Source: Escherichia coli
GTDB taxonomy: Bacteria > Pseudomonadota > Gammaproteobacteria > Enterobacterales > Enterobacteriaceae
DNA length: 64,000 bases
Direction: 5' to 3' (one strand)
Assembly (NCBI RefSeq): GCF_001677475.2
Contig: NZ_CP015229.1
Part shown: positions 8,372 to 27,000 of the stretch, in pieces
Layout of the letters: the number at the start of each line of letters is the position of its first letter
Position numbering within the stretch: position 1 is the stretch's first letter
Made by a program: the position numbers and the translations under genes
Notes under the pieces: generated by a model
The model's input: the letters and a program-made list of their open reading frames with translations, nothing else
Database searches by the model: none
Told to the model about the DNA's origin: nothing

Positions 8372-10852
8372 TTACTGGCAAATATAATTTCTACTTTCAT
8401 CAATCTCTTTACCGAAGGTGATTGTGCATGAAAGTCCTTGTTGCTTATCAATTGCTACATTAACCGATGGCGGTACTTCATTGGTGCGAATAAATAACTG
8501 GCTTCCCTGGCCGACAACGCCAATATTATGACCATGGATATCATTGACTTCATAACCAAACGTTAATGGTTGACCATCCGCTCTTAACGCTTTTATAAAC
8601 CAGGGCTTGCGCTGATCGGTATCAAAATTAACCAGTACAACCGCGCCGCGAAAAGGGGCGGCAATTTTCCGGTTGCCACGTAATTCTGCTTCGCTATCGC
8701 TTTGCGACACATCCAGCATCAGGTGATTTTCCCGATAAGGTGTCATTCCGTCGTATACCACCACTCCATTATGGTTTGTTGTGCGATATTTTTGCCCATT
8801 GACATAAGCATCTTTAATTCCTGGCGCATTCATCACAGCAAACGTTTCGGAAAGACGGTTCGCCAGATTAACGCCACCCGACCAGGCGACAATGCCCCCT
8901 GAAACACTGGCTCCAGCCTGTCGATAAGTACTCGACTGACTATAACTGCCATTCACCGTTGCCACCGGCGCGTTCCAGGTTAAATTCGCTCCAGCTGTCG
9001 TTTCATTTCCCTGATGCTGATGACTCAGGTTGACCCCATAGTTAAATTGATCCCGGCTTCCAACGGTTCCCGATAATCCCGTATTATTTGAGGCAAAACC
9101 CTGATCATCAAACGTCGTTGAGTTAGACATATATATTTGCCGACGAGGCGTCGTAACGTCATCACCCCAATCAAAGGGAATCGATATAAAAATATTAAAA
9201 CGTTTCTCTTCATGATGATTCTCGTCATAAGCCTGGCTTGCCGCGAGGGTATAGCTTATCCGTCGCAGGTTGTTGGAATAACTCAACTGATAATCCTTAC
9301 TGCTGCCGCTACGCCCCCAGTAATCTCGCCATAACGTACTTAAGGACACAGAACCCCAGCCTTCTGGCAATGACTGGCTCATATTGGCAGAAAAGCTATT
9401 TTTACGGCCAAAATCGTTCTGGTAATAATCGGCAATGTCATAGATATCGTTTTCATCACGGCGATAATTATCTTTATTGTTTGCCCAAACGTGATCGTTA
9501 AATGTCCGGTAATCACGCGACGAATAACGCCAGGCCGCCAGACCAAAACGCGTCGACGTTTGGCTCACAAATTTGTTGTAGGCAATTTGATAACTTTGCC
9601 CGTCAAACACATCGCCGTTGTCTTGTTTACTATGCGACTTCGTGGCATCGACGGAAATGGCACCAATGCGTGTATTCCAGCCAGTCCCCAAAGTGAACGC
9701 GTAATAATTATTCGCGACCATCGATCCGCCATACAGCGTCAATAAGTTATTAAAACCATACTGATAACCCGCCTGGACAAAATCACTTTGTTTGCTCGCC
9801 CCTTCAATATGGCTACGACCCGCCGCAAAATCATATTTCGACACGCCAGGTTGCAGCATATTCGGCACCGCTGAATAAGGCACCAGATAGGTGGTTACCG
9901 AACCGTCCGCCTCTTTCACGCTGACATCAAGATCTGCTCCACCACCGGCCAACTGCAAATCTGTAATCGCAAACGGGCCAGGAGGAACCTCTTTCTGATA
10001 AACGACAAAACCATTCTGTTCAATAGTTACCAACGCGTTACTCTGAGCAATCCCCTGCACCCGTGGCGTAAAATTTTGTTTCGAGTTAGGCAACATCTGC
10101 ATATCACGAAACAACCGCACACCTCTGAAGCGAACAGAATCAAAAATATCGCTTGATGTATACATATCACCCACGCGAAGCGTGCCGAGAAGTTGGACAA
10201 ATCCACGTTCCAGATACAGGGTATTGCTTTTCCACACCCCTGGATTGTTATTTGTTTTACTGAAACTTGCATCAGAATGCAGTTGCCACCCCAGTAAATT
10301 TAACCCGCTGTTAAAACGTACATATGTACTCTTACTGTTACCCGACGCTTTATAGTCACTGTAATACTGACTCACATAATAAGAGGTATAAACCGCATTA
10401 ATACCCCGCTCCCAGTTTTCCGGTGGAACATAGCCACTTTCCAGTTCTTCCACCCAGGCCTGCGGGACACTGAAATCGAGACGAAAAACCCCGATATCCC
10501 AGGTATAGCTCCCACCCTGAACAAGTTGCTCAAATGTTAAACATTGCTTACCGCTGGCGAAGTTATCGCTATTAATGCCTAACCGCTTGATAACTTCTCT
10601 TGATAAACATGTTTCTTGCGGGTTGTCTTTAACAATAATCTCATATTTCCCGCGCCATTGCTTATTGACATAAATATCGATGTCATACTGCCCCGGCAAG
10701 GGTTGATTATCATCAAGACGAATATTTGCAACCTGCTGGTCTTTCATTCCACCTATCATAAAATGGGTATCAAAGGTTTCTTCAGCTGCATAAGCTTCAA
10801 TGCCGAGCAATAACGCTACGATTGCTGATGCAAGTGGGGTCATTCTCAACAT
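8372..10852 (-). CDS. yehB: fimbrial outer-membrane usher
   Basis: ~826-aa usher-family protein (start at Met 10852; ORF extends to 10867). Confidence 0.9.
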   Translation of the reverse strand: MLRMTPLASAIVALLLGIEAYAAEETFDTHFMIGGMKDQQVANIRLDDNQPLPGQYDIDIYVNKQWRGKYEIIVKDNPQETCLSREVIKRLGINSDNFASGKQCLTFEQLVQGGSYTWDIGVFRLDFSVPQAWVEELESGYVPPENWERGINAVYTSYYVSQYYSDYKASGNSKSTYVRFNSGLNLLGWQLHSDASFSKTNNNPGVWKSNTLYLERGFVQLLGTLRVGDMYTSSDIFDSVRFRGVRLFRDMQMLPNSKQNFTPRVQGIAQSNALVTIEQNGFVVYQKEVPPGPFAITDLQLAGGGADLDVSVKEADGSVTTYLVPYSAVPNMLQPGVSKYDFAAGRSHIEGASKQSDFVQAGYQYGFNNLLTLYGGSMVANNYYAFTLGTGWNTRIGAISVDATKSHSKQDNGDVFDGQSYQIAYNKFVSQTSTRFGLAAWRYSSRDYRTFNDHVWANNKDNYRRDENDIYDIADYYQNDFGRKNSFSANMSQSLPEGWGSVSLSTLWRDYWGRSGSSKDYQLSYSNNLRRISYTLAASQAYDENHHEEKRFNIFISIPFDWGDDVTTPRRQIYMSNSTTFDDQGFASNNTGLSGTVGSRDQFNYGVNLSHQHQGNETTAGANLTWNAPVATVNGSYSQSSTYRQAGASVSGGIVAWSGGVNLANRLSETFAVMNAPGIKDAYVNGQKYRTTNHNGVVVYDGMTPYRENHLMLDVSQSDSEAELRGNRKIAAPFRGAVVLVNFDTDQRKPWFIKALRADGQPLTFGYEVNDIHGHNIGVVGQGSQLFIRTNEVPPSVNVAIDKQQGLSCTITFGKEIDESRNYICQ

Positions 10853-10867
10853 AGGCAGCTCCTGCAA

Positions 10868-11542
10868 TTAAATTTTGTCACTAATATAGTTGCCGTGGTC
10901 ATCGATAATGGTCAGATACCAGTTATTTGCATTATTACTTTTGACATTAACACTCTGACTTTCTAAGGGGGCAATCATAATAGTTTCATAATTGACTTTG
11001 ATATTATTCGCTTTTACATCGGAAATCGTCACCCAGTTCGGCGAATCATTTTTTATCACCAGCCCATTGCCGCTACGATTTACCAGCAATTTCTTAAACG
11101 TTGCTTTATTAACCGGAGCAATACCCGCCGGTCGGTAAAACAATTTGATTCTGTTTTGCATCGCAAACTTCAGTGCATTCTTGCCTTCTTGTTCTGGACT
11201 ATTTGGTGGAATATCCAGAACATTAAGATAAAAAATGCTCTCTTTATTACTGGGCAACTTATTCGGCATGATTTTAATTTTTACTTGCTGTCCGGAGTTA
11301 GCCCCTATTTTTGCCACTGGTGGCGTTAGCATGAAAGGAACCTGAATCTTTTCCGGCGGCAGTGATGTGTCGCCATCATCAATCCACGCCTGAAGTAATG
11401 AAGATCGGTTTCCCTGATTCATCAACTGCACCATAACTTCTTTATTTTCTGCCGGGTAAATAATGCGCGTCCCGTAGATAACAATTCCGGCATGTGCAGG
11501 AAGGACTATAGAAAAAATGAGTAAAGATAATAATCCTTTCAT
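10868..11542 (-). CDS. yehC: periplasmic fimbrial chaperone (PapD-like)
   Basis: 224-aa ORF with signal peptide, chaperone family; directly upstream of usher. Confidence 0.85.
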   Translation of the reverse strand: MKGLLSLLIFSIVLPAHAGIVIYGTRIIYPAENKEVMVQLMNQGNRSSLLQAWIDDGDTSLPPEKIQVPFMLTPPVAKIGANSGQQVKIKIMPNKLPSNKESIFYLNVLDIPPNSPEQEGKNALKFAMQNRIKLFYRPAGIAPVNKATFKKLLVNRSGNGLVIKNDSPNWVTISDVKANNIKVNYETIMIAPLESQSVNVKSNNANNWYLTIIDDHGNYISDKI

Positions 11543-11622
11543 CTTAATGCCTCTTAAATTAAAAAGCCGCCATGGGGATAGCGGCCATGTTTATTACCTG
11601 GAGAAACTTGCAATTTTATTTA

Positions 11623-12165
11623 TTAATCCTGCGCCACACGCATAACCAGAGAAGATAACACATCACCTGATTGCACTGAGTTATCTGTCAGTTTCAGGTA
11701 TTTTGCTTTAAACGGAATAGCATATTGACCTTCCGCTGTTTTATAACTCTCAATGTTAAAAGGTGCAGAAACATCCAGGACATCGCTGTTATCACCTAAA
11801 TAGAGATAGTACCCCACGGTATCGTTGCTACTGGCTATCGCCTTATCGTTTCCGGTTATTTTATCGTTGGTAATCAACGAGAGTTTCACACCAGCAACTT
11901 CTTTCGGACAGCTAATTTTTAACATGCTGCTGGTTACACCGACTGCATCATCATAGGTCGAGTATTTAGCTTTACCTTCAAAGACAGTGGTTGGTACAGT
12001 TGGCATATTAATACTTACTGAATCACCACCCGCTTCGAATTTACACGGAGATTCTGCAATATTCCCTTTAATAGTTAATGTTCCGGTATCAACGTCTGCA
12101 GCAAATACTCCAGCGCTCATAAAAAAAGAAGAAAAGACAGCGGCAGCAATAATTGAACGTTTCAT
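11623..12165 (-). CDS. yehD: fimbrial major subunit-like protein
   Basis: 180-aa ORF with signal peptide and fimbrial subunit character. Confidence 0.85.
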   Translation of the reverse strand: MKRSIIAAAVFSSFFMSAGVFAADVDTGTLTIKGNIAESPCKFEAGGDSVSINMPTVPTTVFEGKAKYSTYDDAVGVTSSMLKISCPKEVAGVKLSLITNDKITGNDKAIASSNDTVGYYLYLGDNSDVLDVSAPFNIESYKTAEGQYAIPFKAKYLKLTDNSVQSGDVLSSLVMRVAQD

Positions 12166-12395
12166 AATATGTTCCTTAATAAAATTTATTTTTGGTTGTT
12201 AAGAGTCTGTATCTCTTGGAAACAAATTTCTCACATCAAAAAAGTTGCCGCAATGTAAACATATTGTTTTATTGATTTAAAACAAATTAACCATTGCAAT
12301 ATAAATACAACAAATACTTAAGAGTATTAAATATTTATCGCATCTATTAATTAATGTAGATTTATGTAAATGGTATTGTTGATATCAATAAAAAA

Positions 12396-12428
12396 AGCCG
12401 AAATCATTTATATAAATGATTTCGGCTT
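12396..12428 (-). terminator. intrinsic terminator downstream of yehE
   Basis: Inverted repeat AGCCGAAATCATTTA/TAAATGATTTCGGCT followed on minus strand by a T7 run. Confidence 0.7.
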
Positions 12429-12458
12429 TCTAAATGCAATTAAAACCAGGGTGGCAAA

Positions 12459-12740
12459 TTAATCGTAGCGATTTAACACGATTCGACGTTTGCTATCGCT
12501 ACCTGCAACAACCACTTCTGTCGTCACACCTTTGACTGGCGAAGAAACCTGATGACGGGTATCAACATCATACGTTAACTGACCACAATGCTGTTGAGGT
12601 TGACCATTAACCATAGCCATACTGCATGTTGGGGGACTGATCCTGCCATTAATCGTTAATGTGGCAGTCTGTGAAGAGAACGCGGGAGAAGCCATTCCAT
12701 AGGCAAGAAAAATAATTCCTGACAGCCAGTACTTATTCAT
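12459..12740 (-). CDS. yehE: small secreted protein of unknown function
   Basis: 93-aa ORF with signal peptide; recognised as YehE. Confidence 0.75.
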   Translation of the reverse strand: MNKYWLSGIIFLAYGMASPAFSSQTATLTINGRISPPTCSMAMVNGQPQQHCGQLTYDVDTRHQVSSPVKGVTTEVVVAGSDSKRRIVLNRYD

Positions 12741-12941
12741 TGAACGTTATCCCTGTAGTAAAGGTTATGCCTGGATAGAATGAGTGCATAACAAACTATA
12801 GCTGTACATCCACTACACAGCCACGAAGGATGATAATGAAGCATTGCCTGTACGATCAATCGACTTTATAGAGTTTCGGACGAAGGTCCGCAGAATATTC
12901 GCAGCATTAAATAAGTGTTCATTAATGCGGCAAAAACAAAT

Positions 12942-12972
12942 ACACCGCATCAATGTTACATCTCTGCGGTGT
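12942..12972 (-). terminator. intrinsic terminator downstream of mrp
   Basis: Stem ACACCGCA/TGCGGTGT followed on minus strand by T-rich run. Confidence 0.6.
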
Positions 12973-13002
12973 ATGAAAAACAACCAAAAAGGTTAATGCG
13001 CG

Positions 13003-14112
13003 TTAGACCGCGCGGAAGGAAATCTCGCCAGGAATGACTTCACCCTGCCAATAAAGCTGGGCAGCAACGCGGTCAGCCAGCTGGCGGTAGATAGCGGTAA
13101 ATTCGCTCTCCGGACGGCTGATAACCGTTGGCGTGCCTTTATCGAGATCTTCACGTAAGGAGATGTGTAACGGCATCTGCCCCAGCAACTGCGTGTGGTA
13201 TTTCTCGGCCAGTTTCTCTGCACCACCGGTACCGAAAATCGGTTCATGGTGACCACAGTTACTGCAAATGTGCACACTCATGTTCTCGACAATACCGAGC
13301 ACCGGAACCTCGACTTTCTCGAACATCACAATGCCTTTTTTCGCATCGATCAACGCGATGTCCTGCGGGGTGGTGACCACGACCGCACCAGTTACTGGAA
13401 TGTTTTGTGCCAGTGTCAATTGAATGTCACCGGTGCCTGGCGGCATATCAAGCACCAGATAGTCGAGATCCGGCCACAAGGTTTCCTGCAACATCTGCAT
13501 TAACGCCTTGCTCGCCATCGGACCACGCCACACCATCGCATTGTCGTCAGTGACCAGATAACCAATTGAATTGGTTGCCAGTCCATGAGACATAATCGGT
13601 GCCATATGGGTACCGTCCGGCGAAGTTGGACGCTGATTTTCTGCGCCCAGCATGGTGGGAATTGATGGGCCGTAGATATCGGCGTCCAGAATGCCGACTT
13701 TCGCCCCTTCCGCCGCCAGTGCCAGCGCCAGGTTTACCGCCGTGGAGGATTTACCCACGCCGCCTTTACCTGAGCTGACCGCAATGATGTTCTTCACGCC
13801 GTTAATTCCCGGCTGATTCTTCACGCGTTTTAAGGTGGCGATATTATGCGACAGTTTCCAGTCAATAGCTTTCGCCCCGGTGATACGCAGCAGTTCGGCG
13901 CTACATTGCTCTTTTAACTCTTCGAACGCGCTATGCCAGACGAATGGCATAACCAGTTCCACATGCAACGTGTCGTCCATCCAGGCGACATGGTGCAACG
14001 CTTTCAGCGTGGTGAGGTTATGCTTCAGGGTTGGGTGCTGAAAATTGGCCAGTGTCCCGGCGACCATTGCGCGCAAGGCTTCTGGTGATTTGGCCTGGGA
14101 TTGTTCGTTCAT
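13003..14112 (-). CDS. mrp: Fe-S cluster carrier ATPase (Mrp/ApbC/NBP35 family)
   Basis: 369-aa product from Met at 14112 (ORF extends to 14142); P-loop SGKGGVGKS and CxxC motif. Confidence 0.95.
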   Translation of the reverse strand: MNEQSQAKSPEALRAMVAGTLANFQHPTLKHNLTTLKALHHVAWMDDTLHVELVMPFVWHSAFEELKEQCSAELLRITGAKAIDWKLSHNIATLKRVKNQPGINGVKNIIAVSSGKGGVGKSSTAVNLALALAAEGAKVGILDADIYGPSIPTMLGAENQRPTSPDGTHMAPIMSHGLATNSIGYLVTDDNAMVWRGPMASKALMQMLQETLWPDLDYLVLDMPPGTGDIQLTLAQNIPVTGAVVVTTPQDIALIDAKKGIVMFEKVEVPVLGIVENMSVHICSNCGHHEPIFGTGGAEKLAEKYHTQLLGQMPLHISLREDLDKGTPTVISRPESEFTAIYRQLADRVAAQLYWQGEVIPGEISFRAV

Positions 14113-14243
14113 CCCGACTCCTTTTTTGTATAGATAAACCATCAGCTGATAGTTTACCTGAAGAATATAGAGAAGTACTTACTTAACATTTTCCCATTTG
14201 GTACTATCTAACCCCTTTTCACTATTAAGAAGTAATGCCTACT

Positions 14244-16277
14244 ATGACTCAAGTCGCGAAGAAAATTCTGGTGACGTGCGCACTGCCGTACGCTAACGGC
14301 TCAATCCACCTCGGCCATATGCTGGAGCACATCCAGGCTGATGTCTGGGTCCGTTACCAGCGAATGCGCGGCCACGAGGTCAACTTCATCTGCGCCGACG
14401 ATGCCCACGGCACACCGATCATGCTGAAAGCTCAGCAGCTTGGTATCACTCCGGAGCAGATGATTGGCGAAATGAGTCAGGAGCATCAGACTGATTTCGC
14501 AGGCTTTAACATCAGCTATGACAACTATCACTCAACGCACAGCGAAGAGAACCGCCAGTTGTCAGAACTTATTTATTCTCGCCTGAAAGAAAACGGTTTT
14601 ATTAAAAACCGCACCATCTCTCAGCTGTACGATCCGGAAAAAGGCATGTTCCTGCCGGACCGTTTTGTGAAAGGCACCTGCCCGAAATGTAAATCCCCGG
14701 ATCAATACGGCGATAACTGTGAAGTCTGCGGCGCGACCTACAGCCCGACTGAGCTGATCGAGCCTAAATCGGTGGTTTCTGGTGCTACGCCGGTAATGCG
14801 TGATTCTGAACACTTCTTCTTTGATCTGCCCTCTTTCAGCGAAATGCTGCAGGCATGGACCCGCAGCGGCGCGTTGCAGGAGCAAGTGGCAAACAAAATG
14901 CAGGAGTGGTTTGAATCTGGCCTGCAACAGTGGGATATCTCCCGCGATGCGCCGTACTTCGGTTTTGAAATTCCGAACGCACCGGGCAAATATTTCTACG
15001 TCTGGCTGGATGCGCCGATTGGCTACATGGGTTCTTTCAAGAATCTGTGCGACAAACGCGGCGACACCACCAGCTTCGATGAATACTGGAAGAAAGATTC
15101 CACCGCCGAGCTGTACCACTTCATCGGTAAAGATATCGTTTACTTCCACAGCCTGTTCTGGCCTGCCATGCTGGAAGGCAGCAACTTCCGCAAGCCGACC
15201 AACCTGTTTGTTCATGGCTATGTGACGGTGAACGGCGCGAAGATGTCCAAGTCTCGCGGCACCTTTATTAAAGCCAGCACCTGGCTGAATCATTTTGACG
15301 CTGACAGCCTGCGTTACTACTACACTGCGAAACTCTCTTCGCGCATTGATGATATCGATCTCAACCTGGAAGATTTCGTTCAGCGTGTGAATGCCGATAT
15401 CGTGAATAAAGTGGTTAACCTGGCCTCCCGTAACGCTGGCTTTATCAACAAGCGTTTTGACGGCGTGCTGGCAAGCGAACTGGCTGACCCGCAGTTGTAC
15501 AAAACCTTCACGGATGCCGCTGAAGTGATTGGTGAAGCATGGGAAAGCCGCGAATTTGGTAAAGCAGTGCGCGAAATTATGGCGCTGGCTGATCTGGCTA
15601 ACCGCTATGTCGATGAACAGGCTCCGTGGGTGGTGGCGAAACAGGAAGGCCGCGATGCCGACCTGCAGGCAATTTGTTCGATGGGCATCAACCTGTTCCG
15701 CGTGCTGATGACTTACCTGAAGCCGGTACTGCCGAAACTGACCGAGCGTGCAGAAGCATTCCTCAATACAGAACTGACCTGGCATGGTATCCAGCAACCG
15801 CTGCTGGCGCATAAAGTGAATCCGTTCAAGGCACTGTATAACCGTATCGATATGAAACAGGTGGAAGCACTGGTGGAAGCATCCAAAGAAGAAGTGAAAG
15901 CCACAGCCGCACCGGTAACTGGCCCACTGGCTGACGACCCGATTCAGGAAACCATCACCTTTGACGACTTCGCCAAAGTTGACCTGCGTGTGGCGCTGAT
16001 TGAAAACGCGGAGTTTGTTGAAGGCTCTGACAAACTGCTGCGTCTGACACTGGATCTCGGTGGTGAAAAGCGTAATGTCTTCTCAGGCATCCGTTCTGCT
16101 TATCCAGACCCACAGGCACTGATTGGTCGTCACACCATTATGGTGGCCAACCTGGCACCACGTAAAATGCGCTTCGGTATCTCCGAAGGCATGGTGATGG
16201 CTGCCGGTCCTGGCGGGAAAGATATCTTCCTGCTAAGCCCGGATGCCGGTGCTAAACCGGGTCATCAGGTGAAATAA
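14244..16277 (+). CDS. metG: methionyl-tRNA synthetase
   Basis: 677-aa product; HIGH motif (SIHLGH) and KMSKS motif present. Confidence 0.98.
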
Positions 16278-16286
16278 TCTCCTTTC

Positions 16287-16316
16287 AAGGCGCTGTATCG
16301 ACAGCGCCTTTTCTTT
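16287..16316 (+). terminator. intrinsic terminator after metG
   Basis: Stem AAGGCGCTGT/ACAGCGCCTT with 4-nt loop followed by TTCTTT. Confidence 0.85.
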
Positions 16317-16417
16317 ATAAATTCCTAAAGTTGTTTTCTTGCGATTTTGTCTCTCTCTAACCCGCATAAATACTGGTAGCATCTGCATTCAACTGGATAA
16401 AATTACAGGGATGCAGA

Positions 16418-19400
16418 ATGAGACACTTTATCTTTCAGGACGAAAAATCACATAAATTCTGGGCGGTGGAGCAGCAGGGAAACGAGCTGCATATCAACTG
16501 GGGAAAAGTCGGCACCAACGGGCAAAGTCAGGTAAAAAGCTTTGCTGATGCTGCGGCGGCGGAAAAAGCGGAACTGAAGTTGATTGCGGAGAAGATTAAG
16601 AAGGGGTATGTGGATGATGGTTCGCCAGAAACCATCATAAACTCTCCGATATCAAGCACAGTTTCAGTACAAGAGTTAGCAATATCAACAGGAAACTTCA
16701 CAACGACTGAAACGGCACAGCCACAAGCGATGCCCACGTTGGAAACGCCGCCCTGGCTGAAGAACGGTGAGTCAATTGTTATTTTTGCCAATGCTGAACC
16801 CGCGCCGTTTAGCCATCGTCACTTGATTAATGATCCTCTGGACATTGTTGATAAAGATGGCTTCTTCTGGATACAACTAAAAGAGTACCCATATTGGGCA
16901 GCATTTTACCTTGCCTGTCTGCAAAAGTTCGATGTCAGCCAATGCCAGTCAGAATGGCAATTGGCGTTACAGGAAACTATTTCGCGCATCCAGAAATTAC
17001 AGCAAGACGGATCGTTGCTTTCCGACGTCATATTGACACTGACAAGATTAATTATCGGCCGCCCCGGTCGCCCTCATACATGGCTGGATAGCATAGTGCA
17101 ACTGCGAGGCCTTGAGTATGCCACTGAGTTAGTTATCGCTATGCAGCATGTACAAATGACTGACGACGCAAATACCGATCCTACAAAAAATGCCACTTTA
17201 AAACTTCATTACAATAGTCTTTTTAGTGCGCTGAGAAGAGGGGAAATGGCAGACAATTATTATCTACCTGTAGTAAGCCTTAGCCACGATATTTCCGACA
17301 TGCGCTACAAATATGGATTCAGCGACGAAATAGAGTTACGTTTACGAGAACACCTTTCGCACACAGATGAGGAAACCTGGCAACGCTGTGCTAATAAACT
17401 CATAGATGCTCTCCCTTCACTGCCTCCCCGCAAACGCCCATTAATTGCTTTTTTGCTACCAGAAAAACCAGATATTGCCAATCAGATAGCCCTGGAAATT
17501 GCCCCTATGCATGATTACCCAGAGATTGAGTGGCTTTCCCTTGTCACAACTGACCCGCAAGCAACGTGTCTGCTGAAGAATTTCCATCAACTTGAACTCA
17601 CAACGGGATGGGGAGGCGATATGACGAATCGTTGTATTAAAACCCTACTGCGTGAACAAGGTCTTAATGCCCTGTCACGTCTGCAAGAGGGAGTTAACGA
17701 TAGTTATCCTGTCAGACACGCACTTCAGGAAATTAACCATCCTGATGTCGTTACGTTGTTTATCAAAGAGGAATGTGCCATAGGTGTCGAAATTTCGGCT
17801 TCGAAGTACCCAGAATCGGCGCTTTATGCCCTTACTGCAGCTTTGCTTAGTGCTAAAAATCTGAGGTATTCTCGCCTGATGGAACGAATTGTATTAGGTA
17901 ATGCTCAAACCTTGCGTAATACAATGCCCTGGTTGAGTGAGGAACAGAAACAACTTTTATTCAGTTATTTTCCTCAACTTCATGCTAAAGAAGAGATAGC
18001 CAATGCTTGTGAGTTACCCGGTATATTAACTAATCCAATTTGGCTGAAGAAAAAGAATAAATCCGCCACGACGATATTTACATTACCCGTATTGCCTCTG
18101 GAGTCCATTGGCCCCAACCCTCAGCCACAACCCGAAGCAGAAATACCTTCTACTGCTGAAGTCTTACGCCACCTGGGATTCAGTAGTGGAGCATTTGAAG
18201 AGAATAATCCTGATCCAGAAAGATTCGATATTAAATGGGGCGTAACCAAAACGGCCATTCGTCTTCTGGAAACGGAAGATTATGAATCGTTGTTAAATAC
18301 CCGACCAAAGTATGATTATGAAGGTTTTATTACCTTTTATGTATCCATACTCACTCGTCTACCAGCAGAGAAAGCGCTCTCAATCTGGAATGGACTCTCA
18401 CACATGCACCTCGTGGGTGCTGAGAAAGTGGTTGAGCGATTTGGTCTATCTACGGTACCGGGTCTGTTGCGTTATGCCCTGGTAAACCCTAAGGAGGCGG
18501 TTCCCCTGGCAGCACAATTCGGTGCAACTGAAGTTGCCCTGCTGATGGCCCGCGCATTTTGCCAGTTAAAATCCGTACGAGATGTCGCCGAATATTGGCT
18601 CACCACCTACCCGGAACATGCCATTACCGGGCTGCTGCCTATTGCGCTGGGTAAACCAGTTAAAGAACAACAAGATGCCCGGATGACATTACGCTACCTG
18701 GTCAATAATGGTCATCTCGCGTTGCTGAAAAAAATTGCCAGCCGTTACCAACAACCTGAGGTAATAACTGCACTTACCGACTTTTTAGCAGCAGATCCGC
18801 TGGAAAACTATCCACAGAAAATCGCCAAACTCCCTGGGTGGTGTTCACCAGAAGTATGGCACCGCCCGCTTCTGCGCAGTAACGGCAAGGCACTTTCAGA
18901 TTCAGCCATCCTGCACCTGTGCACCATGCTCTCTTTTCCCCGCGAAGCCACCCTTTACCCAGGGATAACACAGGTAATCAAGGCCTGTACTCCGCAATCT
19001 CTTGCCGATTTCGCCTGGGATCTCTTCCTCAGTTGGGAATCTGCCAGTGGCTCCGCTAAAGATAACTGGGCATTTACCGCACTGGGGATTCTGGGCAACG
19101 ATGACACCGCCCGCAAACTCACCCCGCTCATCCGCGCCTGGCCGGGGGAATCTCAGCATAAACGCGCCACTGTCGGGCTGGATATTCTTGCTGCTATCGG
19201 CAGCGATATCGCCCTGATGCAGCTTAACGGCATCGCGCAAAAGCTAAAATTTAAAGCCTTGCAGGATCAGGCAAGAGTTAAAATCGCCCAGATTGCCGAA
19301 AGCCGCCAACTCACCGTCGCAGAAATGGAAGACCGGTTAGCGCCGGATCTCGGACTGGATGATAACGGCTCACTACTGCTGGATTTCGGCCCACGCCAGT

Positions 19401-20254
19401 TCACCGTCAGCTTTGATGAATCCTTAAAACCGTTTGTGCGCGATGCTTCCGGCAGCCGCCTGAAAGACCTGCCCAAACCGAACAAAAGCGATGATGAAAC
19501 ACTGGCTGAGGAAGCGGTAAATCGCTACAAGTTGTTGAAAAAAGATGTCCGCACGGTGGCAGCGCAACAAATTTCGCGTCTGGAAGCCGCCATGTGTCAG
19601 CGTCGCCGCTGGACAGCAGAACAGTTCCGCCTGTTTCTGGTTGAGCATCCCCTGGTACGTCATATCACCCAACGTCTGATGTGGGGCGTATACGATGCAG
19701 ATAATCAGCTTATCACCTGTTTTCGCGTGGCGGAGGATGGCAGTTTTAGCGACGGTCAGGATAACCCGTTAACCCCTGCGCAGGGTAGCATCGGTATCCC
19801 GCATGTGCTGGAAATCCCGGCCCCGCAGGCGGCTGAATTTGCTCAACTGTTTTCTGACTACGAACTCCTGCCACCGTTCCGTCAACTCGATCGCCCCTGG
19901 TCTCAGCTCTCTGATTCAGAAAAAAACAGCAACGATTTGCAGCGCTGGGCTGGTCGCCAGGCACCAAGTGGGCGCGTCGCCGGGCTGATGAATAAAGGCT
20001 GGCAACGGGGCGATGTGCTGGATGGTGGCGGCTATTACTCATTTTATAAAGCTGTGGATGATGGCTACGTCGAACTGAGTGTGACACCCGGCTTCAGTGT
20101 TGGATTACCCGTCACCGAAATCAGCGCCAGCCAAAAAATTGAGCACATTCAGTTGTGCAAACTGACGCCGCACAAATCGGTTTATCCCTTCTCCGTGCTC
20201 GACGACATCACCGCCAGCGAACTCATTAACGATATTGAATCACTGTTTGATTAA
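16418..20254 (+). CDS. molR: giant WGR-domain protein with DUF4132-like C-terminal region, paralog 1
   Basis: 1278-aa ORF; N-terminal ~65 aa with FQDEKSHKFWAVEQ...WGKVG (WGR-type) motif; first of three tandem paralogs; positional equivalent of K-12 molR (symbol assigned by position and recollection). Confidence 0.8.
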   Translation: MRHFIFQDEKSHKFWAVEQQGNELHINWGKVGTNGQSQVKSFADAAAAEKAELKLIAEKIKKGYVDDGSPETIINSPISSTVSVQELAISTGNFTTTETAQPQAMPTLETPPWLKNGESIVIFANAEPAPFSHRHLINDPLDIVDKDGFFWIQLKEYPYWAAFYLACLQKFDVSQCQSEWQLALQETISRIQKLQQDGSLLSDVILTLTRLIIGRPGRPHTWLDSIVQLRGLEYATELVIAMQHVQMTDDANTDPTKNATLKLHYNSLFSALRRGEMADNYYLPVVSLSHDISDMRYKYGFSDEIELRLREHLSHTDEETWQRCANKLIDALPSLPPRKRPLIAFLLPEKPDIANQIALEIAPMHDYPEIEWLSLVTTDPQATCLLKNFHQLELTTGWGGDMTNRCIKTLLREQGLNALSRLQEGVNDSYPVRHALQEINHPDVVTLFIKEECAIGVEISASKYPESALYALTAALLSAKNLRYSRLMERIVLGNAQTLRNTMPWLSEEQKQLLFSYFPQLHAKEEIANACELPGILTNPIWLKKKNKSATTIFTLPVLPLESIGPNPQPQPEAEIPSTAEVLRHLGFSSGAFEENNPDPERFDIKWGVTKTAIRLLETEDYESLLNTRPKYDYEGFITFYVSILTRLPAEKALSIWNGLSHMHLVGAEKVVERFGLSTVPGLLRYALVNPKEAVPLAAQFGATEVALLMARAFCQLKSVRDVAEYWLTTYPEHAITGLLPIALGKPVKEQQDARMTLRYLVNNGHLALLKKIASRYQQPEVITALTDFLAADPLENYPQKIAKLPGWCSPEVWHRPLLRSNGKALSDSAILHLCTMLSFPREATLYPGITQVIKACTPQSLADFAWDLFLSWESASGSAKDNWAFTALGILGNDDTARKLTPLIRAWPGESQHKRATVGLDILAAIGSDIALMQLNGIAQKLKFKALQDQARVKIAQIAESRQLTVAEMEDRLAPDLGLDDNGSLLLDFGPRQFTVSFDESLKPFVRDASGSRLKDLPKPNKSDDETLAEEAVNRYKLLKKDVRTVAAQQISRLEAAMCQRRRWTAEQFRLFLVEHPLVRHITQRLMWGVYDADNQLITCFRVAEDGSFSDGQDNPLTPAQGSIGIPHVLEIPAPQAAEFAQLFSDYELLPPFRQLDRPWSQLSDSEKNSNDLQRWAGRQAPSGRVAGLMNKGWQRGDVLDGGGYYSFYKAVDDGYVELSVTPGFSVGLPVTEISASQKIEHIQLCKLTPHKSVYPFSVLDDITASELINDIESLFD

Positions 20255-20266
20255 AAGGATTTAGCA

Positions 20267-23200
20267 ATGAAAACCTATATTTATCAGGACGAAAAATCAC
20301 ATAAATTCTGGGCGGTGGAGCAGCAAGACAACGAGCTGCATATTAGCTGGGGTAAAGTCGGTACTAACGGGCAAAGTCAGGTAAAAAGCTTTGCTGATGC
20401 TGCGGCGGCGGAAAAAGCGGAACTGAAGTTGATTGCGGAGAAAACAAAAAAGGGCTACGTAGAAGAAGTATCCGTGATAACACCGACATCTGTCCCCGTC
20501 CAGGTTATCGAATGCCCCGAAATAGCCCCTTTGCCACAAGACAAACCAGTATTTGTTGGAGACAACCTCCCCTGGCTGGCAGACGACGCCCAAATCATTT
20601 TACCGACAGAGGTTGCGCCAACCACACTAAGTCATCGACGCTGGCCTGGCGATCCTGTGCCACAGGAGAATGAATTAACTCTGCTACGCTCCGTCGCCGC
20701 GAATACTCACCGACGTTTTAAAAAGGTGATCACCTTCGATTACAGCACCTGTTCACTGGACTGGCAGCAGGCGATAACACAAGCAGTGGGCCTTATCGAC
20801 TCGCCGATTAGCACCACGCTACCACCGATGGTTCTGGCGGTACTGGTTGCGCTGGAACAAGGCTTCAATCGTAACGATCACGAAGAGTTAATGGATCAAA
20901 TTGTCCAGGAAGGTGGTCTGGAATATGCCACTGAGGTTGTCATTGCACTACAATTCATCCGCTTCGACTGGGATTATGATGCCCATCTTATTACGTTCAC
21001 CCCGGATGACAGGCAGCCTGGCTATCTGTTGCGCTTTGCCTCGGTTGAAATGCGCCTGCGCAAGCATTTCTCACTTGCAAATGACGATGTATGGCAGCGC
21101 TGCGCCGACAAACTGATTGCCGCTCTCGGAAACATGCCCGCCTGGCACCAGCCGCTGGTTGCACTATTGTTGCCGGAAAAACCAGAAGTAGCTCATGAGA
21201 TTGCCAGACATTTTTGCGGGCAAAAAGGGTTATATGCGCTGGAATGGCTAAAACTGACGGTCACCGATGCTCAGGTATTAGCAGACCTGGAAAAATACTA
21301 TCCAGGACAGCCTGGGCAGGTATTTGATGATTACTATGGCGGTAACATCTGGTGTGCGACAGCACTCCAGGAGCAAGGAGTCACTGCGCTGGCCCGTTTT
21401 GCCCATTACGCTACTGGTGACACATGTGGTGAAGTGTTGATGCATATCAACCACCCGCAGGCACTTACACTACTTATCCATGCAAGCGAGCAAGGAAAGC
21501 GTTGCCACGATCGCATGACAAAGGCTTTCGTTCGCTTCCCACACGCAGCGCTGGCGGCATTAGCAGAACTTCTGGCACAAAAAGATGAAAAGCGCTGGCG
21601 CATGATGCTAATGACGATGCTTATCTCGCAACCGGCACTAGCAGAACAGGTCACTCCCTGGCTCTCAACCCCCGCAGTTGCAGTGCTGAAATCATGCCAG
21701 CAACAACTGACACAGCCCTCAAACCATGCCAGCGCCGATCTACTGCCAGCCATATTAGTCTCACCGCCCTGGCTTTCGAAAAAGAAAAAATCTGTAATGC
21801 CGGTATTGGATTTAACGCCATTACCGCTGGAGTCATGCTGCACATTGACCGAGACGGCAGAAAAAGAGATTCATGCAAGGCATCGCTGGCACGCACATCA
21901 AATAGACGTCGGCCAAAAAGAGGATATTCAGAACTACCTGACACGTCTGGGTTTCAATCGCTGGAATAATGGCCAGTATATGAAAGCGTCTGATGCTGTT
22001 GTAGAACTCTGGCAGAGGGGAGATTATTCTGCGCTAATCAGCGAATTTAAAACCTTCTGGCACTCCTATCAACGGGAATGGCAGCTTTACATGTTAGCCG
22101 CCCTGCCTATCGAAAAAACAGCGCAGGCGTGGAATGTCCTCAGTAAAGAGCCACACGTCGGTGTCGAGTTTGTCATGACGCACCTGCAACTCGCTGGGTT
22201 ACAGGGTTTTATTCACTCCTTTTCACGCTATCCACAAGAAGCTCTGCCTGTAGCACAATATTTTGCGGCTATCGAATTAGCGCCACTGATCGCCCGCGCC
22301 TTCAACAAACTCAAAACCCTACGACAAGACGCCCGCACCTGGCTGCTGAAATACCCGGAACACGCCATTACCGGCCTGCTACCTTCGGCGCTCGGCAAAG
22401 CCGGTGAAGCACAGGATAACGCCCGCGCTGCCTTGCGTATGCTTACCGAAAACGGTCATCAGCCATTACTGCAAGAAATCGCCCGGCGTTATAACCAGCC
22501 GGAAGTAACAGATGCGGTGAACGCTCTGCTTGCGCTCGATCCCTTAGATAATCACCCGACAAAAATCCCCACTCTTCCGGCCTTTTATCAGCCATCGCTC
22601 TGGACGCGCCCGGTATTAAAAGCAAATGCCCAATCACTGCCAGATAGCGCCCTCCTACGCCTCGGCGAAATGCTCCGCTTCCCTCAGGAAGAGGCACTGT
22701 ATCCGGGATTATTGCAGGTGAAAGCCGCCTGTACCGCCGACTCACTGGCTGAATTTGCCTGGGATCTGTTTACCGCCTGGCAGACCGCTGGCGCACCGTC
22801 GAAAGAAAGCTGGGCGTTCACTGCGTTAGGTGTTCTCGGCAACGATGACACCGCCCGCAAACTGACGCCTTTGATTCGCGCCTGGCCTGGTGAATCCCAG
22901 CATAAACGCGCCACCGTCGGGCTGGATATTCTCGCTGCTATCGGTAGTGATATCGCCCTGATGCAGCTTAACGGGATCGCCCAGAAACTGAAATTCAAAG
23001 CATTACAGGAGCGGGCAAAAGAAAAAATTGCCGACATTGCCGAGAGTCGCGAACTGACGGTAGCGGAGCTTGAAGATCGGTTAGCACCGGATCTCGGTCT
23101 GGATGATAACGGTTCGCTGCTGCTGGATTTTGGCCCACGGCAGTTCGCCGTCAGCTTTGATGAAACCTTAAAACCGTTTGTGCGCGATGTTTCCGGCAGC

Positions 23201-24028
23201 CGCCTGAAAGACTTACCTAAACCCAATAAAAGCGATGATGAATCACAGGCGAACGATGCTGTTAACCGCTACAAATTGCTGAAAAAAGATGCGCGTACCG
23301 TCGCCGCCCAGCAGGTAGCAAGGCTGGAATCCGCCATGTGCCTGCGCCGCCGCTGGTCGCCGGAAAACTTTCAGCTCTTCCTGGTTGAGCATCCGCTGGT
23401 TCGTCACTTAACCCGCCGTCTGATTTGGGGCGTTTATAGCGCCGAAAACGAGCTACTGGCTTGCTTTCGCGTGGCGGAAGATAACAGCTACAGCACCACA
23501 GACGATGATCTTTTCACCCTGCCGGAAGGCGATATCTCTGTTGGTATTCCTCACGTTCTGGAAATATCACCCACGGATGCCGCTGCCTTTGGTCAGCTTT
23601 TTGCCGACTACGAACTGTTACCGCCGTTCCGCCAGCTTGACCGCAACAGTTACGCGCTGACAGAAGCCGAACGCAACGCCAGTGAACTGTCCCGCTGGGC
23701 CGGCAGAAAATGTCCGAGCGGTCGAGTAATGGGGCTGGCGAATAAAGGCTGGATGCGTGGTGAACCGCAGGACGGTGGCTGGATCAGCTGGATGATCAAA
23801 CCTCTGGGCCGCTGGTCGTTAATTATGGAAATCGATGAAGGTTTTGCGGTCGGCATGTCGCCAGCCGAACTGAGTGCCGAGCAACTCTTAAGCAAGGTGT
23901 GGCTATGGAAAGGCAAAGCAGAAAACTATGGCTGGAGGAGTTATTCAACACAGGAAGCGCAGTTCTCCGTACTCGATGACATCACCGCCAGCGAGCTGAT
24001 TAGCGATATTGAATCTCTGTTTGAATAA
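20267..24028 (+). CDS. giant WGR-domain / DUF4132-like protein, paralog 2
   Basis: 1253-aa ORF 12 bp after paralog 1 (AAGGA SD); N-terminal WGR region and C-terminal ~450 aa highly similar to paralog 1, central region divergent. Confidence 0.85.
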   Translation: MKTYIYQDEKSHKFWAVEQQDNELHISWGKVGTNGQSQVKSFADAAAAEKAELKLIAEKTKKGYVEEVSVITPTSVPVQVIECPEIAPLPQDKPVFVGDNLPWLADDAQIILPTEVAPTTLSHRRWPGDPVPQENELTLLRSVAANTHRRFKKVITFDYSTCSLDWQQAITQAVGLIDSPISTTLPPMVLAVLVALEQGFNRNDHEELMDQIVQEGGLEYATEVVIALQFIRFDWDYDAHLITFTPDDRQPGYLLRFASVEMRLRKHFSLANDDVWQRCADKLIAALGNMPAWHQPLVALLLPEKPEVAHEIARHFCGQKGLYALEWLKLTVTDAQVLADLEKYYPGQPGQVFDDYYGGNIWCATALQEQGVTALARFAHYATGDTCGEVLMHINHPQALTLLIHASEQGKRCHDRMTKAFVRFPHAALAALAELLAQKDEKRWRMMLMTMLISQPALAEQVTPWLSTPAVAVLKSCQQQLTQPSNHASADLLPAILVSPPWLSKKKKSVMPVLDLTPLPLESCCTLTETAEKEIHARHRWHAHQIDVGQKEDIQNYLTRLGFNRWNNGQYMKASDAVVELWQRGDYSALISEFKTFWHSYQREWQLYMLAALPIEKTAQAWNVLSKEPHVGVEFVMTHLQLAGLQGFIHSFSRYPQEALPVAQYFAAIELAPLIARAFNKLKTLRQDARTWLLKYPEHAITGLLPSALGKAGEAQDNARAALRMLTENGHQPLLQEIARRYNQPEVTDAVNALLALDPLDNHPTKIPTLPAFYQPSLWTRPVLKANAQSLPDSALLRLGEMLRFPQEEALYPGLLQVKAACTADSLAEFAWDLFTAWQTAGAPSKESWAFTALGVLGNDDTARKLTPLIRAWPGESQHKRATVGLDILAAIGSDIALMQLNGIAQKLKFKALQERAKEKIADIAESRELTVAELEDRLAPDLGLDDNGSLLLDFGPRQFAVSFDETLKPFVRDVSGSRLKDLPKPNKSDDESQANDAVNRYKLLKKDARTVAAQQVARLESAMCLRRRWSPENFQLFLVEHPLVRHLTRRLIWGVYSAENELLACFRVAEDNSYSTTDDDLFTLPEGDISVGIPHVLEISPTDAAAFGQLFADYELLPPFRQLDRNSYALTEAERNASELSRWAGRKCPSGRVMGLANKGWMRGEPQDGGWISWMIKPLGRWSLIMEIDEGFAVGMSPAELSAEQLLSKVWLWKGKAENYGWRSYSTQEAQFSVLDDITASELISDIESLFE

Positions 24029-24037
24029 GGAAATAAC

Positions 24038-27000
24038 ATGAACAAGGAATTACCGTGGCTGGCGGATAACGCACAACTGGAACTGAAATATAAAAAAGGC
24101 AAAACGCCGCTCAGCCATCGCAGTTGGCCGGGCGAACCGGTGCCTGTTATTACTGAAAGCCTCATCCAGACACTGGGTGATGAATTGCTACAAAAAGCTG
24201 AGAAGAAAAAAAACATTATCTGGCGTTATGAAAATTTTTCACTGGAGTAGCAGTCCGCCATCACGGAAGCCATCAACTTGATTGGCGAACACAAACCCTC
24301 AATTCCGGCACGGACAATGGCGGCGCTAGTCTGTATCGCGCAAAAGGACAGCCAACAGTTGCTCGACGAAATCGTCCAACAAGAGGGACTGGAATATGCG
24401 ACTGAGGTGGTGATTGCACGCCAGTTTATTACACGATGTTATGAGAGTGATCCTCTGCTAGTGACATTGCAGTATCAGAACGAGGACTATGGCTATGGTT
24501 ATCGCTCAGAAACCTATAACGAATTCGATCTGCGACTGCGTAAGCATCTCTCTCTGGCAGAGGAAAGCTGCTGGCAGCGTTGCGCCGACAAACTCATTGC
24601 CGCACTGCCAGGAATACCCAAAATTCGCCGTCCTTTTATTGCGCTGGTCCTCCCGGAAAAACCAGAAATAGCCAATGAGTTGGTAGGTCTTGAATGCCCG
24701 CGGACTCATTTTCATTCTAAGGAGTGGTTAAAAGCTGTTGCTACTGCCCCCCGGGCGGTGAGAAAACTCGAACACTACTGGAGCCAGGATATATTTAGCG
24801 ATCGCGAAGCCAGCTACATGTCGCATGAAAACCGCTTCGGGTACGCGGCCTGCGCCGCCCTTTTGCGTGAACAAGGACTGGCAGCCGTTCCGCGCCTGGC
24901 AATGTATGCCCATAGAGAGGATTGCGGAAGCCTGCTGGTACAAATTAACCATCCGCAGGTCATCCGCACCTTGCTGTTAGTTGCTGATAAAAACAAACCC
25001 AGCCTGCAACGTGTGGCTAAATACAGTAAAAATTTCCCCCACGCGACACTCGCCGCACTGGCAGAACTGCTGGCGCTAAAAGAACCACCTGCGCGTCCTG
25101 GTTATCCAATCATCGAAGACAAAAAGCTGCCTGCACAGCAAAAAGCACGTGATGAATACTGGCGTACGCTGTTACAAACGCTGATGGCATCGCAGCCACA
25201 ACTGGCAGAAGAGGTGATGCCGTGGTTAAGTACTCAAGCCCGGTCAGTGCTGAATAGTTATTTATCGGCACCGCCTAAAACGGTTATTGATAGCACCGAT
25301 AACAGCCAAATGCCTGAAATCCTCGTTTCACCACCGTGGCGTAGTAAGAAAAAAATGACAGTTCCACGTCTTGATTTGGCACCGTTCGAATTAACGCCGC
25401 AAGTTTACTGGAAACCAGGCGAACGAGAGAGGCTTGCCGCCACTGAGTCTGCCCGTTATTTCAGTACGGAATCTCTTGCGGAACGCATGGAACATAAAAG
25501 TGGACGAGTTGTACTACAGGAGCTGGGTTTTGGAGATGATGTATGGCTGTTTTTGAATTATATACTCCCCGGAAAACTGGATGCTGCACGCAATTCACTC
25601 ATTGTTCAGTGGCATTACTACCCAGGGCGGGTTGAAGAGATCATGAATGGCTGGAGCTCCCCGGAAGCTCAATTAGCAGAACAGGCGCTTCGCAGCGGTC
25701 ACGTAGAAGTGTTAATTAACATATGGGAAAATGACAGCTACTCACGCTATCGTCGGGAAAAGAGTATCTGGAACCTGTATTTATTGGCGCAGTTGCCGCG
25801 TGAGATGGCTTTGACTTTCTGGCTACGTATCAATGAGAAAAAGCATCTGTCTGCGGGTGAGGACTATTTTCTCAGTATCTTCGGATTGGATGCTCTACTA
25901 GGTCTGCTGTTGGCTTTTTCACATCGTCCAAAAGAAACATTTCCGTTAATTTTAAATTTCGGCGCAACCGAACTAGCCCTGCCCGTTGCCCGCGTCTGGC
26001 GACGTTTCGCGGCGCAGCGTGATCTGGCCCGCCAGTGGATTTTACAATGGCCGGAACATACGGCTACTGCACTTATCCCTCTTGTCTTCACCAAATCCAG
26101 CGATAATAGCGAAGCTGCATTACTTGCCCTGCGTTTACTTTACGAACAGGGACATGGCGAGTTACTGCAAACCGTGGCAAACCGCTGGCAGCGTACAGAT
26201 GTATGGCCTGCCCTGGAGCAATTACTTAAACAGAGTCCAATAGAGATTTACCCGACACGCATTCCAAAAGCCCCTGATTTCTGGCAGCCGGCAATGTGGT
26301 CCAGGCCGCGCCTTATCACGAATAATCAACCTGTTACTGATGACGCTCTGGAAATTATCGGCGAAATGCTGCGCTTTACCCAGGGCGGACGTTTTTATAG
26401 CGGACTGGAACAGCTGAAAACGTTTTGCCAGCCGCAAACGCTGGCAGCCTTTGCCTGGGATCTTTTCACCGCGTGGCAACAAGCTGGTGCTCCCGCAAAA
26501 GACAACTGGGCATTTCTGGCGTTAAGTCTCTTTGGCGACGAAAGCACGGCACGGGATCTGACGACACAGATCCTTGCCTGGCCACAGGAAGGCAAATCTG
26601 CCCGTGCTGTCAGTGGTCTGAATATACTTACTCAGATGAATAATGATATGGCACTGATACAGTTGCATCATATATCGCAACGGGCGAAATCCCGCCCCTT
26701 ACGTGATAACGCGGCGGAATTTCTTCAGGTGGTCGCAGAAAATCGCGGGCTAAGCCAGGAACAGTTAGCGGACAGATTAGTCCCAACACTGGGTCTTGAT
26801 GATCCGCAGGCGTTGATTTTTGATTTTGGTCCACGGCAATTTACCGTTCGCTTCGATGAAAACCTTAACCCGGTTATCTTTGATCAGCAAAACGTTCGCC
26901 AGAAAAGCGTTCCCCGGTTGCGCGCCGATGACGATCAACTGAAAGCACCCGAGGCACTGGCCCGACTAAAAGGGCTAAAAAAAGATGCCACTCAGGTGAG

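Follow-up and report, generated by a model that had tools for sequence, protein, structure and literature searches.

The 64,000-nucleotide (nt) stretch of Escherichia coli DNA analysed here (the window; assembly GCF_001677475.2, contig NZ_CP015229.1) carries three tandem same-strand genes, p1, p2 and yehI, directly after metG, in what is the metG-molR(yehF/yehH)-yehI-yehK-yehL region of E. coli. The first two encode proteins of the WGR–DUF4132 family and open with a direct repeat that is the subject of this report. We conclude that the repeat is very probably the conserved head of a tandem array of WGR–DUF4132 (molR/yehH-family) genes, homogenised by gene conversion and used as the site of whole-gene gain and loss. 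The genes and features of the array are as follows, with open reading frames (ORFs) marked, protein lengths in amino acids (aa), and the gene positions within the array referred to as slots.

14235-16277, + strand: metG, an ORF and the conserved left flank of the array, annotated as metG in every related E. coli locus.
16287-16310, + strand: terminator-like hairpin 3' of metG (10-pair stem with 6 GC pairs, followed by a T-run); the first-slot upstream region begins here.
16393-16408, + strand: LexA-box-like CTGGATAAAATTACAG, 10 nt 5' of the p1 ATG, with one mismatch to CTGT-N8-ACAG.
16418-20254, + strand: p1, an ORF for a 1278-aa WGR–DUF4132 protein, read as a chimera in which a first-slot start precedes a 'C-type' body.
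16418-16613, + strand: p1 head (gene nt 1-196), WGR-coding, copy 1 of the repeat; similarity to all other alleles stops at about nt 196.
16418-16434, + strand: first-slot-specific start ATGAGACACTTTATCTT (MRHFIF), whose internal-slot counterpart is ATGAAAACCTATATTTA (MKTYIY).
16435-16476, + strand: 42-nt exact match, partner at 20284-20325, almost invariant among Escherichia heads.
16517-16593, + strand: 77-nt exact match (head nt 100-176), partner at 20366-20442, read as a conversion tract.
20189-20462, + strand: conserved, contiguous junction block of about 275 nt, made up of the p1 tail (66 nt), a 12-nt spacer with AAGGA and the p2 head (196 nt).
20267-24028, + strand: p2, an ORF for a 1253-aa WGR–DUF4132 protein, the 'D-type' paralog, vertically inherited.
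20267-20462, + strand: p2 head, copy 2 of the repeat.
23963-24028, + strand: p2 tail, 89% identical to the p1 tail (20189-20254).
24038-27670, + strand: yehI ortholog, the WGR-less third paralog, with an in-frame TGG->TAG change at 24248-24250 when aligned with yehI of K-12, MB53 and GF4-3.

A WGR gene of the array opens with the conserved head, continues in a long variable region that cannot be aligned at the nucleotide level from one gene type to another, and closes with a conserved C-terminal part whose last 66 nt are the tail. The preliminary description had assigned the repeat to the WGR-coding segment, and the domain search agreed: p1 carries WGR at aa 5-68 (Pfam PF05406, E = 1.1e-17) and DUF4132 at aa 1012-1195 (PF13569, E = 3.5e-48). 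The p2 head protein is 88% identical to that of p1, and the Pfam tags of p1, p2 and yehI on related contigs agree with the DUF4132 assignment. Because the p1 tail, the spacer and the p2 head are contiguous, the head repeat makes up one half of a boundary block found again at every gene junction; the complete tail-spacer-head block is present at all internal-slot genes of GF4-3 and MB53. The array between metG and yehI is probably transcribed as one operon. For comparison we used loci from E. coli (SK1144, K-12, K_EC180, O157 and others), E. whittamii, two further Escherichia species, E. albertii, three Klebsiella species, Erwinia and Intestinirhabdus. The array was seated between metG and yehK/yehL-yehM-yehP-yehQ in the window and at every Escherichia and Klebsiella locus examined. 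The window metG is 96.1% identical to that of K-12, and the window flanks reach no more than 97-98% identity to any complete E. coli genome (5,426 compared), which places the window in an Escherichia lineage on the margin of E. coli.

The direct repeat and its partner lie where they had first been reported, at an offset of 3849 nt. Over its full extent (16417-16617 against 20266-20466) the identity is 89%. Between 16425-16600 and 20274-20449, for which about 95% nucleotide identity had been given, it is lower than that, at 160 of 176 positions (90.9%). The perfectly identical tract has the reported length of 77 nt, and its coordinates (16517-16593 and 20366-20442) are corrected here by 3-4 nt. 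The second-longest exact run is 42 nt, every other exact match between p1 and p2 is 26 nt or shorter, and the two heads differ at 21 positions within nt 1-196. Similarity then ends abruptly at about gene nt 196, and the next ~2 kb cannot be aligned at the nucleotide level. The 3' thirds are again 55-93% similar and close in the 66-nt tail at 89%. The claim that the head is far more similar than the rest of the genes therefore held for exact-match length and for synonymous divergence (dS), but the head is not the only similar part, given the equally similar tails. A segment of p1 at 19115-19474, 82-91% identical to its p2 counterpart, was considered as a second recent conversion tract and rejected, being equally similar within and between genomes; its similarity appears to be old and not recently homogenised.

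Gene conversion of the heads, as the preliminary description had suggested, was supported by the dS contrast, by the different grouping of heads and bodies and by a permutation test. Between paralogs within a genome, head dS (0.03-0.25) was far below body dS (1.3-1.5), with values of 0.25 vs 1.53 for window p1/p2, 0.03 vs 1.31 for the C and D genes of GF4-3, and 0.18 vs 1.46 for C and D of MB53. The order was reversed for orthologs, where head dS (0.26-0.56) exceeded body dS (0.15-0.29). In K. oxytoca the p1 and p2 heads were not homogenised (1.30 vs 1.45); head dS there is close to body dS, and low head dS is therefore not intrinsic to the sequence. Comparison of heads within and between genomes took in the three genomes with a C/D pair, namely the window, MB53 and GF4-3. 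Over head nt 18-176, C and D of one genome differed at 8 sites in the window, 5 in MB53 and 1 in GF4-3, versus 9-11 sites for the same gene between these genomes. A 168-nt stretch is identical between the GF4-3 C and D heads. In a comparison of 253 Escherichia head pairs (mean 7.7 differences), window p1/p2 was the only paralogous pair identical over head nt 100-176.

A Sawyer-type permutation of the window pair gave P = 1e-4 for the whole head, with 29 of 29 consecutive polymorphic sites concordant, all of them within the 77-nt tract. Restricting the test by excluding the slot-specific start and the body-linked end gave P = 0.014. For GF4-3 C/D, none of 100,000 permutations reached the observed 62-site run. 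'Recent', as applied to conversion, is a relative term, since 8 differences persist in the converted core.

The bodies tell a different history from the heads. C-terminal bodies of window p1 and p2 are 69% identical at the nucleotide level, as against ~90% for the heads. The D-type C-terminal body of p2 is 88-94% identical to slot-D genes of Escherichia, 73-75% to those of Klebsiella and 69-71% to the only gene present in Erwinia. In total, five or more body types were distinguished, three of them deep lineages besides D that are 64-69% identical to one another and to D. One of these lineages comprises the window and MOD1-EC7003, another E. coli SK1144 and O157 with E. whittamii and E1V33, and the third is that of Klebsiella. 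Bodies thus grouped by paralog across genera, and heads by genus, with C/D heads grouping by genome; Escherichia heads are 81-96% identical to one another regardless of paralog and 69-81% identical to Klebsiella heads. Because the C-terminal bodies sort by gene, with non-D lineages only 64-69% identical to D, the p1/p2 split predates the divergence of Escherichia and Klebsiella. Across the loci compared, this pattern supports gene conversion limited to the head, which predicts it. Two WGR genes and a WGR-less paralog are also present in K. oxytoca and K. spallanzanii, and a single WGR gene in K. grimontii. The K. oxytoca array spans 6251-13738 of the retrieved locus.

Copy number of the array is polymorphic across strains, as had been predicted, ranging from 0 to 4 WGR genes plus yehI. 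The arrangements were:

4 WGR genes (A-B-C-D) and yehI: GF4-3.
2 WGR genes and yehI: the window, SK1144, O157, MS14387, STW0522-31 and C1.
1 WGR gene and yehI: K-12 and 11 other examined E. coli.
0 WGR genes: GDSC2227PM, through a deletion by the insertion sequence IS1.

Gene number differs by whole units of ~3.75-3.85 kb. A head query matched 7,078 places in 5,423 complete E. coli genomes, and the tail-spacer-head junction was matched at ≥90% identity in ~1,636 of 5,419 genomes, where use of this identity band as the junction marker is inferred from sampled rows. By these two independent estimates, ~30% of complete E. coli genomes (of 5,426) carry at least two heads. The GF4-3 tandem of four WGR–DUF4132 genes and yehI occupies positions 2227-21063 of the retrieved locus. 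Its B and C genes have in common a 1.4-kb 3' part that is ~99% identical, with exact runs of up to 284 nt; their 5' parts are ~50% divergent, and these 3' direct repeats are far longer than the heads. The four genes and the B/C 3' identity would fit past duplication, although no two units are duplicates over their full length.

In nearly every Escherichia array sampled, first-slot and internal-slot genes can be told apart at five head sites (5, 7, 8, 11 and 15); p1 of E1V33 and p1 of E. albertii are partial exceptions. The window p1 body ('C' type) occurs in only 4 of 5,426 complete E. coli genomes, and its identity is 96.7% to both the GF4-3 third-slot gene and the MB53 homolog. In all three readable genomes (GF4-3, MB53 and PT62), the C-type body starts with the internal-slot ATGAAAACCTATATT after a tail and spacer. 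In the window it follows the first-slot start ATGAGACACTTTATC, with first-slot bases at nt 1-15, and the 45 nt 5' of the p1 ATG are identical to those of the GF4-3 slot-A gene. Because a first-slot start and upstream region thus precede a body that is C-type from nt 177 on, window p1 is read as a recombinant with its junction in head nt 16-176 (16433-16593). A narrower breakpoint at head nt 18-50, obtained against the GF4-3 slot-A head, was withdrawn, the first-slot head of MS14387 being D-like to nt ~145.

Two further alleles had mappable breakpoints. Against the STW0522-31 slot-A gene, the K-12 type shows only 3 differences over nt 1-158, and beyond that the two cannot be aligned. Against E. 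whittamii p2 it shows 22-24 differences over nt 1-159, then perfect identity over nt 160-213, and it has the E. whittamii p2 type of variable region. The breakpoint falls at head nt ~157-164, equivalent to window 16574-16581 and within the 77-nt tract. These comparisons indicate that in K-12 molR a slot-A head has been joined to a slot-D body. K_EC180 has a first-slot head like that of MS14387 and is then ~2% different from the STW0522-31 slot-D gene to its end, with the breakpoint at about head nt 140-167. Codon-based figures for K_EC180 against STW0522-31 are invalid, an internal stop having upset the alignment. The mapped junctions thus fall inside the head and not outside the repeat. Together with the varying copy number, they lend comparative support to the unequal crossing-over that the preliminary description had proposed.

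The K-12 locus offers the closest reference. Its molR (the yehF/yehH pseudogene) and yehI occupy the same place between metG and yehK/yehL and belong to the same WGR + DUF4132 family. The 3' part of molR has its ortholog in window p2, and the third gene of the window is yehI. The one WGR gene of K-12 has decayed through several in-frame stops and carries the annotation yehF plus the yehH pseudogene, whereas the window has two intact ones; the body type of window p1 is absent from K-12.

The variable regions behave as cassettes. Those of the window (codons 67-450; 16616-17770 in p1 and 20465-21616 in p2) show dS of only 0.007-0.03 to some E. coli alleles, while the heads of the same genes differ by 0.1-0.36 and the C-terminal parts by 0.13-0.22. 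In the comparisons of p1 (C) and of MS14387, it is the 'hypervariable' part that is youngest within the gene. Within p2, a block of ~625 nt (21753-22377, gene nt 1487-2111) has one mismatch to E. coli SK1144 and K_EC180 between flanks that differ by 5-10%, and MB53 and GF4-3 have an unrelated sequence type in its place. The block looks like a recently exchanged second variable cassette. The ratio of nonsynonymous (dN) to synonymous divergence was higher in the variable than in the C-terminal part in most allele pairs (up to 0.87 vs ~0.1); positive selection on the variable part was rejected, as dN/dS nowhere exceeded 1. A short slot-D form of 3033 nt, lacking ~730 nt that include the second variable block, is intact in E1V33 (13814-16846 of the retrieved locus), and the O157 slot-D copy is a decayed version of the same form (16941-19926 of the retrieved locus). 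The variable parts have a GC content of 44-48%, against ~55% for the conserved C-terminal parts.

Homogenised heads, variable copy number and hybrid junctions are all shown by the genomes compared. We propose that gene conversion, the non-reciprocal homologous exchange between heads on the same chromosome, would keep the heads more alike than the genes they belong to, and would have left the 77-nt and 42-nt tracts of perfect identity in the window. Reciprocal exchange between heads of different slots would remove or add units of ~3.8 kb and create hybrid genes. Window p1 would be such a hybrid, joining the first-slot promoter and start to a body that occupies the third slot in GF4-3. In E. coli, recombination pathways differ in the uninterrupted identity they need, from 23 to 90 bp (PMC3758752, section 3.2), and the 77-nt and 42-nt tracts fall within or above this range of minimal efficient processing segments. 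From substrate length, we infer RecA-dependent recombination as the enzymatic route; whether events were deletions or insertions, and whether exchange was within one chromosome or with imported DNA, are likewise matters of interpretation. There is no Chi site (GCTGGTGG) in 15075-29874, a span of 14.8 kb that covers the whole array, against 12 in the whole window where 1.98 are expected from shuffles. Chi therefore does not account for the position of exchange.

Several observations weigh against this account or limit its reach. Support for crossing-over is comparative, no event having been directly observed. At least 24 contigs carry the exact window p1 protein, and the four distinct places examined among them (independent NCBI assemblies, 99.75-99.99% identical over 13.8 kb) agree in gene number and have no head differences, so that rates must be low on clonal timescales. 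The K-12-type junction is common to 11 of the 12 single-gene E. coli alleles examined, which is consistent with one old event that spread rather than with a busy hotspot. Array events are probably rare and old. Insertion sequences IS1, IS4 and IS5 are also responsible for several gene losses or disruptions at the locus. Because some first-slot heads, such as that of MS14387, are already D-like, the window breakpoint is bounded only to 161 nt. Head dN is low (0.008-0.02 in C/D pairs, 0.044 for SK1144 A/D), and part of the head similarity is protein-level constraint on the WGR domain. Finally, some of the mosaicism must stem from imported DNA and not from exchange within one chromosome, because cassettes are near-identical across lineages.

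This last point leads to the strongest rival, in which DNA from other strains, delivered by transduction or conjugation and anchored on the heads, the C-terminal parts or the metG and yehI flanks, produced the tracts, chimeras and array lengths, while adjacent copies in one chromosome neither convert nor cross over unequally. It draws on the low dS of the p1 and p2 variable cassettes to some E. coli beside their far more diverged heads and C-terminal parts, and on the nearly mismatch-free 625-nt block of p2. The rarity of the p1 body type in E. coli and window flanks that at best reach 97-98% identity to any complete genome also speak for it. As a full explanation we nevertheless consider it doubtful. 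Import leaves unexplained the genome-specific variants common to adjacent heads, namely the 168-nt identity of GF4-3 C/D, the GT at nt 98-99 in MB53 and the 77-nt tract of the window, and a hybrid with its breakpoint in the head still requires a head-to-head crossover at some stage. Import and internal exchange are not exclusive; import probably helps to spread alleles, and import anchored in conserved blocks must contribute alongside exchange within the chromosome.

Within-chromosome conversion was further weighed against explanations that dispense with recombination. Strong purifying selection alone, on the WGR domain or on a nucleotide element such as an RNA structure or translation signal, would account for a WGR protein sequence highly conserved out to Erwinia, for head dN of 0.008-0.044 within Escherichia genomes and for codons 7-16, whose nucleotide sequence is nearly invariant across Escherichia. 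We regard it as very improbable. Synonymous sites are homogenised in Escherichia and not in K. oxytoca, 75 of the 196 head positions are polymorphic among Escherichia heads, which are thus free to vary, and an Rfam scan of the heads found no RNA family. Within-genome paralogous heads are also closer than between-genome orthologous heads, and this contrast and the K. oxytoca comparison largely refute selection alone. A recent whole-gene duplication, in which young p1 and p2 diverged fast in the middle and kept their ends, would suit their head-to-tail arrangement, common domain order and similar length, yet is scarcely credible. Orthologous slot-D bodies occur in Escherichia, Klebsiella and Erwinia, and the p1 body (65-69%) is as distant from them as that of Erwinia. 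The C-terminal body dS of 1.5 is near saturation with ordinary dN/dS, and two WGR genes with a WGR-less paralog occur in K. oxytoca and K. spallanzanii as well; on these alignments the body identity matrix already refutes the duplication. Mis-polishing of repeats into an identical tract, a generic concern at ~200 nt, has a negligible probability here. The heads are identical in the four independent NCBI assemblies, the copies still differ at 21 positions, and the same phenomenon is found in the complete GF4-3 and MB53 genomes.

The exchange we propose between heads resembles several known systems in part. The tufA/tufB pair of Salmonella and E. coli is reportedly a classic case of RecA-dependent conversion and concerted evolution, described by Abdulkarim and Hughes in 1996. 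As with tuf, paralogs within a genome are more alike than their age predicts, with genome-specific homogenisation at synonymous sites. The tuf copies are far apart and homogenised over the whole coding sequence, whereas here only the ~196-nt head is affected, besides the 1.4-kb 3' block of GF4-3 B/C. Because the array copies are adjacent direct repeats, crossovers between them also change copy number, unlike those in tuf. Unequal crossing-over in tandem arrays likewise involves direct repeats one unit apart, gain or loss of whole units and hybrids at the junction, but the homology here lies only in short conserved ends of otherwise very different genes. With homology so confined, each event would swap the variable body behind the single regulated first-slot promoter and not alter dosage alone. 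Neisseria pilE/pilS and the type I restriction hsdS shufflons are cassette-type variable loci with conserved recombination anchors, and they similarly have conserved blocks around highly variable segments and mosaic alleles with differing histories. Those systems use silent partial cassettes, whereas every copy of the array is a full-length ORF that has a start, a ribosome-binding site and an AAGGA spacer of its own. The array showed neither a dedicated recombinase nor inverted repeats. Programmed cassette switching or phase variation was rejected, the ORFs being full-length and the heads and gene count invariant across the window clone.

A promoter in the spacer after metG is known for molR, where it is activated by BglJ-RcsB (PMC3950696). 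The LexA-like CTGGATAAAATTACAG was found only in the first-slot upstream region; because the count of this pattern in the window is not above chance, its support comes from the literature, which counts molR among the LexA-regulated genes that have a known SOS box (PMC6590174). Between the array genes, no signals like the first-slot hairpin or LexA-like box were found. This suggests that one first-slot promoter drives the whole array, in which case head crossovers would alter which variable body adjoins the promoter. Functional searches gave little beyond the WGR domain. A PDB sequence search returned a sole match through that domain (2ra8_A, E = 8.5e-17), NCBIfam matched the WGR part only and far under its cut-off, and all PHROG matches were of 'unknown function'. 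PADLOC-DB v2 gave no match at E ≤ 0.01 for p1, p2, yehI, yehK, yehL, yehM, yehP or yehQ. The literature searched on DUF4132/WGR proteins, on yehI-yehQ/molR and on MoxR/SWIM/WGR/vWA proteins yielded only mentions of molR regulation, and nothing on array evolution or protein function.

A more speculative extension, which we think improbable, is that the array is a modular diversity locus in which the head and tail-spacer-head blocks are retained as recombination anchors. 'Sensor-like' cassettes would be shuffled, imported and moved in and out of a first slot regulated by LexA and BglJ-RcsB, and the array would act with YehL (AAA+), YehM, YehP (vWA) and YehQ (SWIM) in a conflict or DNA-damage response. 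Since RecA rises on SOS induction, the capacity of the locus to rearrange would be coupled to its expression. The mosaic cassettes, the five or more body types and the raised dN/dS of the variable parts may be compatible with such a role; it is weakened by frequent pseudogenisation, the lack of a PADLOC match and the absence of any sign of rapid switching. If it were true, the heads would be the recombination anchors of a functional diversity locus tied to SOS and to YehLMPQ.

The mechanism favoured here, conversion and crossing-over between heads, is itself ordinary and textbook; a description of 0-4-gene arrays, hybrid heads and the K-12 molR hybrid was not found in the literature searched. 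One, two or four 'DUF4132' genes with yehI beside metG would be array-length variants linked by exchanges in the ~196-nt head. The metG-adjacent gene is not the same gene across genomes, and orthology or pan-genome pipelines based on position or gene ends will mis-assign it. The locus would also illustrate how a short island of homology can drive concerted evolution and copy-number change between sequences otherwise only ~50-70% identical.

Gene breakage is frequent across the metG-yehQ region in E. coli, which suggests weak or fluctuating selection on the locus. Broken cluster genes include molR in K-12, p1, p2 and yehI in O157, yehI, yehK and yehM in APEC O1, and yehL and yehM in C1. In the window, the stop at codon 71 of yehI leaves an ORF of 1130 aa at 24278-27670, and clonal relatives have the same. 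A frameshift at a poly-A run was rejected as the cause of this disruption, the alignment giving an in-frame TGG->TAG change with the start codon at 24038. The yehI gene is frameshifted or stop-bearing also in O157, APEC O1, MB53 and AMA1167. IS5 or IS1 insertions are present at the locus in MS14387 and NT1N31.

Beyond yehI, the yehK-yehL spacer contains an OrzO-P type I antitoxin small RNA at 28440-28515 (+ strand), matched by Rfam with 101 bits against a gathering threshold of 60, implying a putative zor/orz-type toxin-antitoxin module adjoining the array. Promoter-like sites lie beside it at 28376-28426 on both strands, and the length of this spacer varies from ~0.3 to 1.2 kb among E. coli strains. 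Outside the Enterobacterales, a 433-nt contig of Xanthobacter autotrophicus AM3 (coverage 0.78) is 96% identical to an Escherichia WGR gene and is most likely contamination; a Prolixibacteraceae assembly has two similar 445-nt contigs. Elsewhere in the window, a thiamine pyrophosphate (TPP) riboswitch upstream of thiM (5266-5362, - strand) and a Peptidase-S11 RNA motif (48949-49029, - strand) are ordinary features, to be expected where they lie in E. coli-like genomes.

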